Source: Octopus vulgaris
Taxonomy: Eukaryota
Direction of reading: 5' to 3'
Assembly (NCBI GenBank): GCA_951406725.2
Contig: OX597825.1
Coordinates: forward strand, 3,720,001 to 3,784,000
DNA: 64,000 bases
In this document: one piece after another, positions 4,565-55,099 of the stretch
Numbering within the stretch: the first letter of the stretch is position 1
Layout of the letters: each line of letters starts with the position of its first letter
Position numbers and translations under genes: made by a program
Notes under the pieces: model-generated
The model's input: only the letters and a program-made list of their open reading frames with translations
Databases searched by the model: none
Told to the model about the DNA's origin: nothing

Positions 4565-4720
4565 TATATTTGTTCATATTTAGCAGAAGCAGCAGAGTGA
4601 CCCGAGGGCTGAAAGTTTCCTGCGTTGGCATCTATCAGAATTTTGGTAAGTGCCAAAGCAGGAATATGCCGACCGTTGCGTCACGCTGTTGCTACTGATA
4701 AATATGTTAATAAAAATATA
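4565..4720. repeat. Foldback palindrome (MITE-like), about 155 bp
   Basis: ttcctgcgttggcatctatcaga / tttggtaagtgccaaagcaggaa pair with almost no loop. Outer arms tatattt..catatttagcagaagcagcagagtgac / gtcacgctgttgctactgataaatatg..aaatata also pair. Confidence 0.75.
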
Positions 4721-4787
4721 AACATACTCATATTTTGGGTTCTGTTTTGCATCAACATAAGTAAATATATATATATATATATACATA

Positions 4788-4847
<60 letters not shown>

Positions 4848-4930
4848 GGTCCCGGGTTGATTCGGGGTTAACCACAGTAAGTAAGGTACTCAATACATAG
4901 CAGAGTAAAATTAATTTATTATATAGAAGG

Positions 4931-4981
4931 AGCTTCTACAGGACTAGTACTGTTTCATTCAAGAGAAATCTTCAGGAAGCT
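4931..4981 (-). ncRNA. Type I hammerhead ribozyme, identical minus-strand copy
   Basis: Exact reverse complement of 5356-5406. Confidence 0.85.
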
Positions 4982-5355
4982 ATTTAACAAGAATTGTATT
5001 AGCATTTATACATTTAGGCAGGTTTAAAGGAGTGGTTTTTATGTATATATTTTTTATATATGTTTTTTATTTTTTTTATTTTTTTATTTTTTTATTTTTT
5101 ATTTTTTTATTTTTTTATTATATTTTTTTATTTTTTTATTTTATTTTATTTTTTTATTTTTTTATTTTTTTATTTTTTTATTTTTTATCTTTTTATTTTT
5201 TTATTTATCTATTCTTTCATCTAACTTACCACTGACTCCTTGACCACTCCCCCAAGTATGATATTTTGCGCTATGCCTACCCCCAAAAAAGTCCCCCACC
5301 ACCACTCCTTTAAACCTGCCTAAATGTATAAATGCTAATACAATTCTTGTTAAAT

Positions 5356-5406
5356 AGCTTCCTGAAGATTTCTCTTGAATGAAACAGTACTAGTCCTGTA
5401 GAAGCT
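5356..5406 (+). ncRNA. Type I hammerhead ribozyme, intact core
   Basis: Stem I agcttc/gaagct; CTGAAGA (5362-5368); stem II ttc-tctt-gaa with T.T closing pair; GAAAC; stem III acag/ctgt enclosing near-palindromic tactagtc; cleavage triplet GTA (after 5400). Confidence 0.85.
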
Positions 5407-5417
5407 CCTTCTATATA

Positions 5418-5509
<92 letters not shown>

Positions 5510-5759
5510 CATTTAAGTTGTGAAAACAAAAGTATTACATCCAATAAAACCCCAAAAACAGAAGAAACATTGCCTTCCTAATAAAAAGGGCACTCCTACA
5601 AGCTTATTTTCAAAGGTCTGCATGCATGAATAGTTTCGAAACGAAAACATAACCCAAAAGTTAACCTTTCCATAACAGGCAACGTAAAAACTTAATTACC
5701 ACTTCATTGAGACCCACTCTCCAAAAGATGGTTTTACTTCAACAAACACTATACAAGCG

Positions 5760-6247: not shown

Positions 6248-7214
6248 GAGGGATGTTTTTAAGAAGAATCTTGGTTCGAACTTCTTTACTTACTTCTTCC
6301 ATATACTTCTTAATTTCTTCCATCGATGTTTCAATACTTAGATTCTAGGTAACAGGATTTCATCATAATTGTGATACTGGTTCCCAGACGAGTTTTATTT
6401 TTTATGTTGCAAACATACAATAATCACGGACTTGCTTGCTCCAGATTTGTCCAGCTGAAACAAGACACCTGTCTTCAGTTTTCCTTGGTGTCAGATCTGT
6501 ATAGACTTTCACATTTGCCTCAGTATGTTGACACAATTCTCTCCATTGGTGGTGTGCCCATTTTGAAAGCCAATAAAATATGCATATTACATCCCCAAAA
6601 CTGAAACCATTACCATATTTACCGATGAAACACCTCCATCATGGAGCGAGTAGGGGCATTTTCCACTGCATTGATCCTCACCTTGCCTCTGGCTCAAAGT
6701 AATGTTGTCAACACTCTTCTTGGGTTAGGAAACGTTGACGGAAACAGGTTGGATGTGCCTCAAACAATGTCAGATTTTCCTTTTATGCGATCAGTTTTGT
6801 GCGCTTTTGGTCAGCTGTAATAAGATGTGGAACCCACTGAAGAGAAACTTTCACCATACCAATTTCCTTATGAAGAATACTCTCAAATCTCTCGTGGAAT
6901 ATGCTAATAATATTGGCTATTCCATTTATAGTCAAACTCCCATCATGAGATATGGAGTATGTCCAAAATTTACTCTGATAGTGAAAGTTGCAAAGTTCCA
7001 ATGTTGTGTTTTCTTCGAAGTTCAGCTGCCCCATTTGCACTTTTGACGATACTGATGCTGCAAACCCTACTGAGATAGCCATGTCAGCATGAATGACCTT
7101 GTGTCCATATTCAAGAGATTTCGTTGCTTGTTACACTGGACGACGTCATAGAATAGTCCGATATCAGAAACAATTCAGTTTTTCATGAGGGCAGATTATG
7201 AACACCTCTGCTCG
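6248..7214 (-). mobile_element. Mariner transposon relic
   Basis: ORF 6783-7082 encodes ..LTINGIANIISI..ESILHKEIGMVKVSLQWVPHLITADQKR, matching the mariner WVPHxL motif. Degenerate TIR-like ends. Confidence 0.85.
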
Positions 7215-12352: not shown

Positions 12353-15300
12353 TATCTCTAAATATTCAGAGTTGCTTGTGAATATCACATTGTACTTACA
12401 ACATGGGACGCGCTTACTGCCCTAAATATTTATATCTTTCATAACATTGCGATGAAATATAATTTTCATAATTGATAACCATAAATATGATGAAACATGA
12501 CTTAACTCCAATCATTCGTCTGTCTTTTCTACTAGTGAGTATTTAATATGCAGTCGTCAGTCTGAAATTTTACAGGGAATAAATTCAGAAGGATTTAATT
12601 ATTATGCGTGTGGAATGAGAGATTACTTCTACTGTTTCCTTCTTGACAGATTGGGAAATAAGGAAATGATGAAATTTTCTGCCGCAAATGTTCAGAATGA
12701 GATTAATTCTAAATCAACTAAGAGAGGGACAATTCCAAAACATCCGTACTACTCATGTTATTCGCTGAGTTATATAACTTTTCATGTGAAGTAAATCACA
12801 AAACCTAAGGCAACGATTTGAACTACAGAGTTGAGCGTTATATAGCTACTGGCTACAGGCTAATATATTAAGCAATACGAATTTACAAGAAATTTACTTA
12901 ATGTTGAAAATAGAAATATACATGGTCTTTCCACATAGGGAAAAAAGCTGGCTAGCATACATTACAGACCGGAAGGAAGAGAGTGAAATCGACTGGTTAT
13001 ACACTAGAAAACACATTTTTAATCATATATATATATATAACTTTTACGCGATTGGTTTGTCACTGTAAATACGTAAATTGTAAACGGTAATAATAATACA
13101 AAAAGAGCACATTTTGATATTGCGACGATGGCACGTTCTGTTCGTAGATAAGTGTTAGACAGTGAAAGAAAATACACCAACAACATTTTCATTTATTCAA
13201 AGCAGAGTTATTGTTACTAAATATAGAAGCTTCTTGATTAAATCAAATACCATGTCTTAATCTCTTTCAGCAAAAACTTCCTGTTTCCAAAGTCAGATGC
13301 TAGATAAGCATTCCATTTGCTACTTGCTGTTAACTGTTTTTATCTTCAATGTAGAATTACTGATACAAATGGTATTTTTTTATTTTCGTGAAATACTTTA
13401 TAGAGATTCTTCACACACGTACTACTTTGAGCAAATACATTATTTTGCACATAGGCAATACAAAATTTTTGTTTCTTTTTCGAACTGTCTTTACATATTG
13501 GAAATCATGGAGAATAGCTAAAATAAGATGAACACGCTACACGATAGAGAAAATGGCGATATGTGGTTTGTAATCAGTCAGTTCACTACTTGCAGATGCA
13601 TCGCTTAATACATTTTCAACTGAGTTTCGTCTTGTATGAGCAGTGAAATGCTCGCATTAGAGGTGAAATAAATTTCAAGTAGACAGACGTAAGCTGAATG
13701 TCAGAAATAAAGGGAGGCAAAAATCAAGATGAATATATCTCTTTCATTTATAAACGGCACAAGCATAACATTTATTTCAGTGGGGAAAAGAAAAGTTCGC
13801 GGAGGAAATGAACTCTTTTACATAATTCTTGCCTACATTTTCTTCTGGTTTTCCTATTTCAAATCGTAACAGGTTCATTTAATAATTTATTCATTTCATA
13901 ATTCATAAAACCATTGGTACATTGCTGTAACTCTTTTTACTCTACATTTAGAAAATGTATCACAGACATTTGAAACATATACATTTCTATACTTAGCATA
14001 CGTGAAATAAATCCACCATGGGCCTCTGCTGTTAATCTACATATTATGAAACTTGTGGTGCTTAAACAAACTATACCAGAACATTCAGAACGGAACTAAA
14101 TGTTACATGAATTCAGAACCGAAACAAACACAGCACACTCTGACAAAATACTTTATACTTTTTTTTCAGATTATAGTATTGCGAAACACGTAAATAATTT
14201 TGAAAAAGGACAGAACAAAATATGGCCACACAAACTCCTGAAAAATTCTACTCAACTTTACCATAAAACACACTCACTTATCTCCAAGTAAAACGTGTTT
14301 GACTTTTGTTTAAAAGTCGTGTTATCTTTCAGCCATGAAATTTATTATCTGGGAGCATAATTACGTCAATGTCTCTATCAATAATGGCATTGATGTTTCT
14401 TAGTATGCATTTGCAGATCATACTAATCTCCGATTTGGTCGCATCGTTGAAGCAGCACTTGGGATTAGAGGCAAAATTTAGTTTATAGTGCTTGAGTGTG
14501 ACAAACGCATTCCTTTTGGCTAACGCTGATATTCACCCAGAAATAACCATGCTGTTGACTAAATGTTTGCCTTGGCTGTTAATGTTGTTGTACCTGAGTG
14601 GGGAAGCGCATTTATATTTGTGTGTTAGGACAGTAAGGCACTAACAGAATGTTTTAGCAGTCGTAATTAAAAACCGAGTTTGCAGTAAAATAATGAAGAG
14701 AACTTACGGAATCTTAGATTGGATCTGATGCCCAGCAGGTCCGCATCAAAGAATCCTCTACATGAATATTTCGGATATATATTTCTTGTTTACAAAACAA
14801 ACTAACCATGACTATTTCCTCTCTCCTTCAGCAGGGATTTTATGTGCCTTCGGCCATTTCCGTATGGCGAGTTGAGTATACGGTTAAGCGCTTTATATGT
14901 GCGAAGCCAATGGTCACTCTCTGACCGGACATAACAATCTTAAAACTTAGTTCGTTTTATTAGTGTCGTTGTTGGAATACTTCTATTATTTAAACATCTA
15001 CATAATAGCAATAGTGGCACCACCCACCTCCTACGTAAAAATGATTAACGACAGATTGTTCGAGAACGGTTGTGAGAATCATTGACTTCGTCACAAACAT
15101 AGGGTTGAAAAAAAATATCAACATCATGGCACAAATGTTGACATCATATCGGCTCACACGTAATGGATGTCTTTATATCCTAACATTTTACCAAAATGTG
15201 TTACTGCGTATATGCACAATATAAATTAAGTTTTAGAATATTTTCTGAAAAAATACTTGAGGAGAAAAGAAATCACTGATGAAGGATAGGATAGAAAATT

Positions 15301-20377: not shown

Positions 20378-20646
20378 AACTTTGTCTCTTACAAATAATC
20401 AAGCAAATACAAGCAGACCACTTCAGTGTTTGAAATACCTGTGCTTGAAACATATGTCGACAGTTGTTCTCGGGCTTCGTAAGTATTGAATCTGCAGGAG
20501 ATTCATTTGCTATCATTCGTACTTCTTTAATCTTCACACTACGACGAGATCATTTCCATTGTTTAAATAATTTAACAGAAGCACACGCGCACACACACAA
20601 TCACACGTGTACACACATACAGTGGAGGAAAAATAACAATAAGTTG

Positions 20647-21019
20647 TGTGTCTTTTGGGCGAGGAAGCCATTATTTAATTAGTTAAGAAAGGCGAGAGTG
20701 AGGACGAGTACTTCGTTTCTGTGTACCATGGTGAGGGAAAAAATATATTTTTGCCTCATTGCCACTTGTAGACATCATAAGAACGAAGACGTTAGAGGCA
20801 GAGGAGAGCGAAATGTCGAGAGATACATCGGAAAAGAAAAGGATGAAATGTTCGAAAGTTTTACATTATAGTTAAGTTCTCTGTTCGTTAAGTCCGTTGT
20901 GAATACAAGCCAGTTGAACTTATGGCCTCGTAGTTATTTCATAGCACGGCTTCCACGTGTCTGTGACTTCCGGGGGATGACCGACGCTGTAATGCAAGGG
21001 AGTGAACTATAATGTAACC

Positions 21020-21051
<32 letters not shown>

Positions 21052-21138
21052 TATGTTCCTCACCATGGAAGACAGCAACAATCGCTCTCACTCTCACCAT
21101 TCTTAATTAAATGATGGCTTCCTAGCGCAAAATACATG
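20647..21138. repeat. Nested inverted repeats
   Basis: Outer arms 20647-20748 (aggaagccattatttaatta..gagagtgag..ccatggtgagg) and 21051-21138. Inner perfect 13-bp IR ttacattatagtt (20861) / aactataatgtaa (21005). Confidence 0.85.
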
Positions 21139-21166
21139 TCTTATTTTTATTTTTCCTCCATTTTGT

Positions 21167-21665: not shown

Positions 21666-21793
<128 letters not shown>

Positions 21794-22246
21794 GAGAAAT
21801 ATTGATGAACAACAATTGACAAACATCAATTATTTTCTTTTTAATATAAATAGATTGTAACTCATCTAACTGTTGTTTCTTCTTCCAATGTGCTACGGCA
21901 TTGCTATTGAAAATTCTGAAAATAGTACTCATCATATGTGGCAACGTATCCGATCTGGGACAAGGAGCTTCATCAGCGTGAAGAAATACATATGCAAAAT
22001 TGTACGATTTAGATATATTGTATTTTCAAATTCTTCTCGAAGCTCATTGTTTTTCTTTTATGCTTCTGATGAAGCTACTGGTTCCGGATGGGATGCCATA
22101 CCAAATATGATGAATATTTTTTTCAGAACTTTCAATGGCAAAGCCGTAGAACATTGGAAGCAGAAATAGCTTTTAGGTGGGATACATTTTATTTGCATTA
22201 AATGTACTAATTTATGTCAGACAATTGTTATTTATCAATATTTCTC
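21794..22246. mobile_element. Old inverted PLE pLTR pair, each arm with a decayed HHR
   Basis: Arms of about 190 bp, gagaaatattgat..cttccaatg..gcttcatcag and ctgatgaagc..cattggaag..atcaatatttctc. Plus arm: CTGATGA (22066)..GAAATagctttt. Minus arm: CTGATGA (21976-21970)..GAAACaacaGTT. Confidence 0.75.
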
Positions 22247-22472
22247 GATTTTCTGTTCATTTGTTTCCTAATAAACTCATGTTTATCTTTGTCATTGCCT
22301 GTAACCTATGAACATAATATGCTTGCATAGTATGTCCAGGGTTAACACACACACACATACACATATATATATATATAAATAATTATGTATGCATGTATAT
22401 AAATTATCGAGTTTGAAATCAGAGAGTTCTAATGGATACAAATTAAGTTATTAATTTATTAATTAACATATT

Positions 22473-34734: not shown

Positions 34735-34832
34735 TTAATAATATCAAGGTAATCAACATTTTAGAAATGTTTACTACCAGTGGCGTAGCGTATAGAACAA
34801 TTAGTCAATAGAATATATATTATTCATTTAAA

Positions 34833-35144
34833 TACAGTATATATTTAAACACATAAGAGGTATCCGTCATATGAATCTTGGCTCGCTAGAAGGAACATCA
34901 AAAGTCCAACCTGCTATTAGGGATAAAACTTCGAAGGGAATGCAAAATAAAAACATTTACCATATATTTACCAATTATTTTATTTGCTAAAAACAGTCAG
35001 GAACCATGGTCCAGGAGATATATGGCAAATGTTTCATTACCTTCGAAGTTTTATCCCAAATAGTAGTTTGGATTTTGGTTGTTCCTTCTAGCGTGCCAGG
35101 AATCCTATGACGAATACCTCCTATGTATTTAAATCTACACTGTA
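34833..35144. repeat. Inverted repeat with about 130-bp arms
   Basis: tacagt..gaggtatccgtcata..cgctagaaggaaca..gggataaaacttcgaagg..aaacatttaccatatat (34833-34967) matches the reverse complement of 35018-35144. Confidence 0.9.
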
Positions 35145-35171
35145 TACATACATATATATGTGTGTATGTGT

Positions 35172-52630: not shown

Positions 52631-52764
52631 ATTATTTATACTATTTACATTTGGCGGATATTTGCCCTCATCTTATTTGTTGTTAACACAACGTTTCGGT
52701 TGATTTACCCTCCAACAACCAAGATGAGGACAAATGTCCGTCAAATGTAAATAATGTACATAAT
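52631..52764. repeat. Palindromic remnant containing half a hammerhead
   Basis: tatttacatttggcggatatttgccctcatctt..gttg (52642-52682) pairs with 52713-52753. The minus-strand spacer reads ..aatcaaccGAAACGTTgtg with no CTGANGA box. Confidence 0.8.
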
Positions 52765-53907: not shown

Positions 53908-54170
53908 TACGAGGGTAGTATGAAAAGTTTTGAGCCTATCCTGGAAACAGATTCTTCTGGTAAGTAAAAGTCTTTTCGGAGTATTCTTGTTCATTTTCTT
54001 GATTATGATATTTAAATTTTTTTTTGCAGATTTTTGAATAAACAAGTGTCGATGTTACAAGAAAAATGGAGAAAACTGAGTATCGTGCTGTCATTAAGCA
54101 CCTTTATTTGAAAGGCATGACTCCATCAGAAATCCATGAAGATATGGTGAGAACCTTAACAGACAATTCT
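53908..54170 (+). mobile_element. Mariner 5' end
   Basis: TA-CGAGGG..aaaagtt TIR; ATG at 54066 gives MEKTEYRAVIKHLYLKGMTPSEIHEDMVRTL. Confidence 0.9.
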
Positions 54171-55099
54171 TTAACTTTCCATTTCGACTGCAACTCAAAT
54201 AATATTAAAAGTTATGCAGCAGGAATATTATAGCTCCAGTATCAGAGTCAATACTGCTGCTACTAGTGTAATCTATAGCCTATGCAAAGAGAATTGAAAT
54301 GAATATCGCAGGACTCCTTGCTCATTCTACTCGTCTATGATATGTTCTTTATTAATATTAAAATCATTGACATTCAACAAAACGATGAAAATAGAGGCTC
54401 ATTGCGATATATTCAGAAGACAATAAAAGATTCTCATTCTGGAACTTTATTTCAGACCAGGCATTTCCGTAAATCATCTATTGATTGAGTCTTCACATGA
54501 CCTGAAATCTGCGCTAATCAAGGGATTTCATTCCACGCAACTGCTGCTGATACTCTAGTATTCTCTACCTCCATATTTTACCAATATCCATCAATTTGCA
54601 ATTATTTAAAAGGGACGTTTAGGAGGTGGTCTCAAAAGCCTTGTGTCCTCTCTAGTTGGGGATGACATATCATTACTCTTAACTTAGAATTCCTAATTAG
54701 AGGATATAGGAATATTAAGTTTTATAATCGCAGTAAGAAGATCGTTGCAGATTTACCTTTGAACTAAACAAAATGTTAAGATTGCCCGCGGAAACTTACC
54801 GTTTCCGACAGCAGATTGTATCTACTGGTTAAGGAAGCAAACTTAGATGTTCATGCTGATAATTTCATGTTGCTTTTTTTTCTGACAATGGGGCATTATC
54901 AATGTCCGAAACATACTCTTCTGCACAACTTTCAGAACCTAGATACATGCGTGCATTTATACGTATAATGCAACAGGTAAACGATAATCACCAAAACATT
55001 TGGCGTCAATAAGTTTGGCAAACAGGTGATTTCTACTTTACTACAACTATTTAGCGACTTGCGTGGTTGATTTCTGCTATCGGCTGCAGCAGAACAATT

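Follow-up and report, generated by a model that had tools for sequence, protein, structure and literature searches.

What kind of event leaves a perfect inverted repeat, with a hammerhead ribozyme motif on each strand, between two (TA)n tracts of an animal genome, and what could the ribozymes do there? The question is raised by a locus of Octopus vulgaris within the 64,000-nucleotide stretch of contig OX597825.1 analysed here, called the window below, from whose first letter all positions are counted. A first-pass annotation, made from the sequence of the window, had placed the feature at 4845..5507 and read it as an insertion of the Penelope-like element (PLE) type. The window as a whole is rich in microsatellites, with ~33% GC.

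Architecture of the inverted repeat

The two arms of the repeat, 4914-5036 and 5301-5423, are exact reverse complements (123/123 positions) with a spacer of 264 nt between them, which upholds the perfect 123-bp inverted repeat first described. They form the only perfect complex inverted repeat of at least 30 nt in the 64-kb window, and no further copy of the arm or of the hammerhead repeat was found within it. Read on the top strand from 4845 and on the bottom strand from 5423, the locus opens with element antisense in both cases, and it divides into two antisense-starting copies, one of 192 bp (4845-5036) and one of up to 387 bp (5037-5423). The left copy, on the minus strand, is an inverted, 5'-truncated copy of the terminal repeat by comparison of the arms; it carries beyond its arm 69 nt of extra 3' sequence (4845-4913), the tail, which is absent from the right copy and had been put at about 70 nt. 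In element coordinates, the outer ends of the two copies thus differ by 69 nt. Both copies run outward into (TA)n, as had been noted, the left one into a microsatellite at 4765-4844 and the tail-less right arm into another at 5424-5507. These two tracts (delimited with TRF) are likely the halves of the target site, and with (TA)n on both sides no target-site duplication is readable. Of the extent first given, the start at 4845 stands, while the last 84 nt are flanking (TA)n and the element ends near 5423.

The spacer had been described as T-rich, which is true of its first part. Positions 5037-5217 hold a (T6-7A)n tandem array (plus strand, TRF), likely the upstream, 3' UTR-like part of the right copy, whereas the segment 5' of the right arm (5218-5300, plus strand) is C-rich from ~5222 and likely, by inference, element sequence. 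TRF alternatively reads the T-rich array as 1.9 copies of an 86-bp unit (5036-5205). The putative head-to-head junction between the copies lies at 5036/5037 in the assembly sequence.

Hammerhead motifs on both strands

In the right copy, the motif occupies 5356-5406 of the plus strand. Its stem I has 6 bp (5356-5361/5401-5406), and the core segments CUGAAGA (5362-5368), GAAA (5381-5384) and UA (5399-5400) follow in type I order. Stem II has 3 bp behind a U·U at positions 10.1/11.1, and stem III has 3 bp and an 8-nt loop containing ACUAGU. The left copy has its type I motif at 4931-4981 of the minus strand. With a GUA triplet, cleavage is predicted after 5400 on the plus strand and after 4937 on the minus strand. 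A descriptor scan of the 64-kb window returned exactly these two motifs, one per strand as had been claimed; with the same descriptor, 0 of 300 simulated windows matched as strictly and 18 of 300 matched loosely. The first-pass description of an intact hammerhead on each strand therefore holds for the complete core and the three stems, found on both strands, while intactness itself is a prediction for a motif in which the usual G10.1-C11.1 pair is missing and U10.1·U11.1 stands in its place.

The search with Rfam hammerhead models that had been proposed as a check gave no match at the gathering score in the window, and none of the 19 matches at E<=10 in 4700-5600 was to a hammerhead. These 19 weak matches, which lie over (TA)n and involve models of the microRNA, pestivirus UTR and snoRNA kinds, were set aside. 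The extra base between positions 9 and 10.1, a trait of metazoan PLE hammerheads according to PMC4209133, is absent here.

Is the U·U a sign of damage? Contigs of four sequencing runs (see below) show no variant of at least 4% at positions 10.1/11.1, and U10.1-U11.1 is found in natural hammerheads (PMC3088659). In addition, among 37 distinct metagenome sequences matching this stem II pattern, 9 can also form stems I and III, whereas 300 flank shuffles gave 0.57 on average and 4 at most. The constancy across the four runs, the natural precedent and the recurrence in metagenome hammerheads argue that the U·U is not damage. The metagenome motifs with a U·U-opened 3-bp stem II are of type I (L007, L041, L043, L028) or type III (L010, L013, L018, L025, L034, L038), and of the 9 distinct ones all but one have the GUA triplet. 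In L041 the motif occurs twice in direct orientation, ~705 bp apart. The exact motif pattern had 0 relatives in metagenome, viral and genome contigs, and the 50 metagenome loci matched by a looser pattern showed homology to the element only in low-complexity sequence or in the motif itself.

Folding predictions were then considered. The fold of 5340-5423 is no better than that of shuffles (z 0.18), and even the bare 51-mer would pay 3.9 kcal/mol, relative to its free ensemble, to adopt the hammerhead fold as a monomer, tertiary contacts being left out. In a dimer, stem-loop III would pair with itself at 12 of 14 positions (-11.8 kcal/mol), and a double hammerhead is modelled at -23.8 kcal/mol against 2 x -5.7 kcal/mol for the monomers. 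This self-pairing and the score of the double hammerhead make the dimer the likelier active form, and best activity is predicted for two ribozymes joined through their palindromic loop III. The plus-strand motif also contains an AUG, whose U is position 11.1, opening a 4-codon frame (5379-5393) that stops in loop III.

The repeat family in public sequencing runs

Of 24 sequencing runs listed, four, with three organism labels (X21, X9, X1 and X6), were aligned to 4836-5065. Half or more of 45 sampled words were found in 10 of the index-found runs. The aligned contigs numbered 1110, 97, 412 and 71 in X21, X9, X1 and X6, respectively, with 892, 74, 368 and 32 of them at least 95% alike. The sole common difference from the window falls at 4983 (mirror position 5354), outside the ribozyme, where the alternative letter accounts for 74%, 59%, 72% and 42% of the depth in the same order; both arms carry the window's letter. 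Near-identical copies are present under several organism labels, and 0 differences over 123 sites place the divergence of the arms below 2.4% (95%). The repeat family is abundant and young; within the bound on arm divergence, the insertion itself may be very recent, as first suggested, and a mobilising partner may be active.

Contigs also reveal where copies of the family end. Among the loose ends listed (20 of 37), those at 4910-4914, which mirror the right end of the locus, run on as (TA)n in all four runs, as do 7 of the 8 listed at 4910-4915. At least 14 contigs of X21 have a loose end at 4914, and the summed depth of X21, which may be the source sample, is ~385-413 thousand over the tail and roughly doubles past it, to 636-888 thousand, summed contig depths not being copy numbers. 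Cover of the tail extends past 4845 in all four runs. With recurrent ends at 4910-4914 and cover past 4845, both outer ends of the locus are standard ends of the family. Head-to-head palindromes with zero spacer were seen at other loci, in at least 3 contigs of X1 and at least 1 of X6. No contig spans 4836-5065, and the inner junction had no cover, repeat letters having been skipped there in the alignment; this speaks neither for nor against the junction. The share of sampled words found in a run (best 0.71 of 45 words) was dropped as proof that the spacer belongs to the family; six runs of other organism labels hold ~0.2 of the words, probably T-rich ones, which makes this measure uninformative on the spacer.

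Identity and origin of the locus

The layout of the locus resembles that published for PLEs, in which an inverted 5'-truncated copy lies beside a forward copy, a tail of 30-40 bp is present at one end only, and insertion is biased to microsatellites (PMC8557442, PMC3846280, PMC2377424). Hammerheads on opposite strands 100-700 bp apart have likewise been described in PLEs (PMC4209133). Here, an inverted 5'-truncated copy adjoins a 5' end at a head-to-head junction taken from the assembly. The tail (4845-4913) is at one end only, though at 69 bp it exceeds the published length, and the contigs point to a family of many copies dispersed among AT-rich or microsatellite targets. No reverse transcriptase (RT) or GIY-YIG match was obtained in 150 of the 199 complex ORFs of the window (at least 55 codons); with no RT/GIY-YIG gene linked to the family, it is the architecture that places the family among the PLEs, be it a non-autonomous family or truncated copies of an autonomous one. 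The insertion of PLE type first proposed, with its inverted ends and one-sided tail, gains support from the published layout and from the family ends that match the ends of the locus. We think it probable that the locus consists of two 5'-truncated copies of a hammerhead-bearing repeat, set head to head in (TA)n by an EN+ PLE insertion, likely dead, in which both cut strands were primed.

How could such an arrangement form? In work with a purified PLE protein, both strands of AT-rich DNA were cut and extended, and copying began at two internal RNA sites spaced by the length of the tail (PMC11167929). By analogy with this biochemistry, the RT-endonuclease would nick the AT-rich target on both strands. 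Priming from one 3'-OH would take place at the distal RNA start site, yielding the tail, and priming from the other at the proximal one. The two cDNAs, of 192 and up to 387 nt, would stop early and be joined at 5036/5037. The inverted repeat would then be the stretch copied by both cDNAs, and the two hammerheads would be passengers of the terminal repeat. Two-ended priming is our own proposal; wording on two-strand priming was located in a review in the openly available literature.

Self-priming has been published as an alternative for head-to-head PLE junctions with palindromes (PMC3846280). The origin would still be a PLE, with the inversion made by a single cDNA or template folding back or switching template. 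Other loci of the family do have their joint at stem I, in its AGCT palindrome, and self-priming fits the zero-spacer palindromes seen at other loci. At the present locus, however, the junction lacks a palindrome, with 264 nt separating the arms, and the 69-nt tail of the left copy is missing from the right one. This tail implies that the left copy was not copied from the DNA of the right copy, so that RNA or a second template would be needed, and we regard such an origin as rather improbable for this locus. It could also be asked if the palindrome is a chimera of the assembly or of a library, as the head-to-head junction is known from the assembly alone, the family has many near-identical copies, and structures of this kind trouble assemblers (PMC8557442). 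Yet the mirror symmetry ends with the element, the flanks being unmirrored apart from (TA)n, and both outer ends are recurrent ends of the family. Both arms also share at 4983/5354 an allele that is the minority by depth in 3 of the 4 runs, which argues that they were not polished to the family majority. The chance that the palindrome is artefactual therefore seems slim.

A still smaller chance is given to a repeat outside the PLEs (retrozyme-like, foldback element or MITE) that happens to bear a hammerhead. The lack of a coding partner in the 150 of 199 complex window ORFs would agree with this, and retrozyme monomers are reported to be dispersed in animal genomes. Against it, no head-to-tail tandem was seen at the locus, where the 64-kb window has one motif per strand, or among the contig joints listed, and retrozymes have themselves been reported as derivatives of PLEs. 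A MITE or foldback element should have terminal inverted repeats out to both ends, whereas the arms here are asymmetric, the left end lying 69 bp past the arm. The locus is likely the ordinary product of a known retroelement class, as proposed above for an EN+ PLE.

Read-through RNA and the proposed switch

The annotation had further suggested that a read-through transcript could either self-cleave or fold into dsRNA, giving two mutually exclusive folds. A transcript of 4845-5423 has a minimum energy of -229.5 kcal/mol (plus strand) or -234.2 kcal/mol (minus strand), and an ensemble constrained to the hammerhead lies 86.4 kcal/mol above the hairpin. As the copies are head to head, the antisense arm is transcribed first in either direction, and for all five transcript lengths tested the fold prediction had every emerging sense-arm base paired with the antisense arm. 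Read-through RNA is thus predicted to fold into a 123-bp dsRNA that would hide the ribozyme, and the ribozyme is predicted to be able to act only in RNAs starting inside the element. Of the suggested outcomes, the masking dsRNA is retained as a prediction; self-cleavage is disfavoured by 86 kcal/mol, and the choice between two exclusive folds was not sustained.

A selected RNA switch, in which read-through RNA would self-cleave or form dsRNA, can be defended in so far as both folds can be drawn and the motif core is complete. The energy difference and the order in which the arms emerge speak against it, no host gene was found in the window, and a PLE hammerhead that was tested remained uncleaved without protein (PMC11167929); a single minimal motif is also reported not to have cleaved when tested. 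We consider such a switch hardly credible.

A TATA-like block and the 5' edge of the ribozyme

A second set of loose ends falls at 4980-4981 (mirror 5356-5357), the 5' edge of stem I, in all four runs, and the depth about halves there. Among those listed, these ends are mixed: at least 2 contigs of X21 continue as (TA)n after a short linker, X1 and X6 have palindromic junctions, and in X9 at least 3 contigs belong to a diverged subfamily (agreement 0.78). Most of the 20-letter stretch 4982-5001 has been exchanged for other sequence in this X9 end and in a single contig of X6; by eye, the TATAAA block and stem I nevertheless keep the window's exact register. The TATA-like block lies at 5326-5335 of the plus strand, with TATAAA from 5327 (mirror 5002-5011), and its first T is 29-30 nt upstream of stem I, the usual distance from a TATA box to the start of transcription. 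This spacing and register, with copies ending at the edge of stem I, suggest from a few contigs that the hammerhead's first base is the start of transcription. In a rotifer, a pLTR had earlier been noted to hold a putative TATA box (PMC3846280).

If the TATA-like block does set the start there, then the RNA would carry the ribozyme at its capped 5' end, and cleavage would take away ~45 nt plus the cap. The ribozyme would then switch the RNA between message and template, rather than being a cutter of concatemers. The RT, primed ~68 or 137 nt downstream on both target strands, would run off the 5' end, giving many short copies and zero-spacer palindromes; at the present locus, a two-ended event of this kind would have copied a longer read-through RNA. 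We offer this combination of start site, capped-end switch and two-strand run-off tentatively, as possible but on balance doubtful. The ends at 5356-5357 could instead mark a 3' splice site at the AG found there, as in Penelope of Drosophila virilis, with a branch-like CTAAT at 5335. However, the CTAAT is not kept in the two diverged loose ends, and one unexplained loose end from the presumed RNA run matches no upstream exon, so that splicing appears a weaker reading than a start site. Contigs carry no information on strand or start, and the deepest one among those listed for this run, X6 (depth 1145, 4953-5030), crosses the proposed start; it fits read-through RNA or DNA and gives no support to the start-site idea. 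In the openly available literature, no paper joining Penelope, hammerhead, truncated, transcription start and TATA was found. A fixed spacing from a TATA-like box to the edge of the hammerhead, with copies ending there, bears on the purpose of the ribozyme.

Other features of the window

A Pfam match to Med31 (13261-13518, plus strand), which had suggested a host gene, scored 22.6 bits against a cut-off of 25; no further exon-like motif was found, and the match was rejected as spurious. A sigma-70 promoter scan gave a chance-level result and, having no bearing on an animal genome, was discarded. Old MITE-like fold-back elements lie at 21786-22254, 34832-35145, 52631-52764 and 20623-21160, with arms 73-76% identical and without a hammerhead core. 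Mariner-like transposase remnants are found at 6783-7130 (minus strand) and 54042-54230 (plus strand), with a WVPH motif (no Pfam match) and a sub-threshold HTH_48 match.

Comparison with known systems

The metagenome matches to the U·U stem II have no flanking sequence in common with the Octopus vulgaris element. In the U10.1-U11.1 hammerheads described in PMC3088659, stem II is opened by U·U as it is here. Animal non-LTR retrozymes (PMC7229834; bioRxiv 10.64898/2026.07.22.740005) are, like the locus, non-coding and low in GC with a type I hammerhead. They form head-to-tail tandems that release circular RNA, whereas the locus is head to head and would release no unit by double cleavage.

The dual PLE hammerheads of Schistosoma mansoni, on opposite strands 100-700 bp apart, have been read as truncated PLEs (PMC4209133); here ~390 bp lie between the cores. 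The S. mansoni motifs have a long stem II opening with G-C, in contrast to the short U·U stem II, 3-bp stem III and 8-nt palindromic loop found here. A palindromic stem/loop III that permits a dimer, given in the same source as a trait of metazoan PLE hammerheads, is present. Poseidon PAc of Anolis carolinensis (PMC11167929) likewise has two recurrent 3' ends past the hammerhead and an AT-rich target. Its ORF starts inside the hammerhead, whereas the AUG here opens four codons and the two ends are further apart.

A further likeness is to the inverted insertion units of EN+ PLEs (Penelope/Poseidon, Neptune, Nematis and Hydra; PMC8557442, PMC3846280, PMC2377424). The locus differs from these in having no remaining or linked ORF and in its tail of 69 bp against 30-40 bp, and shares with them the head-to-head inverted 5'-truncated copy, the one-sided tail, the hammerhead in a terminal repeat and the AT-rich or microsatellite target. 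The PLE papers cited here leave open how inverted structures arise and what role the hammerhead has. For these questions the locus is a clean specimen, in which a single insertion has left its record in two ends, one tail and a pair of identical arms. The layout is already described for PLEs, and this family is a further example of it.
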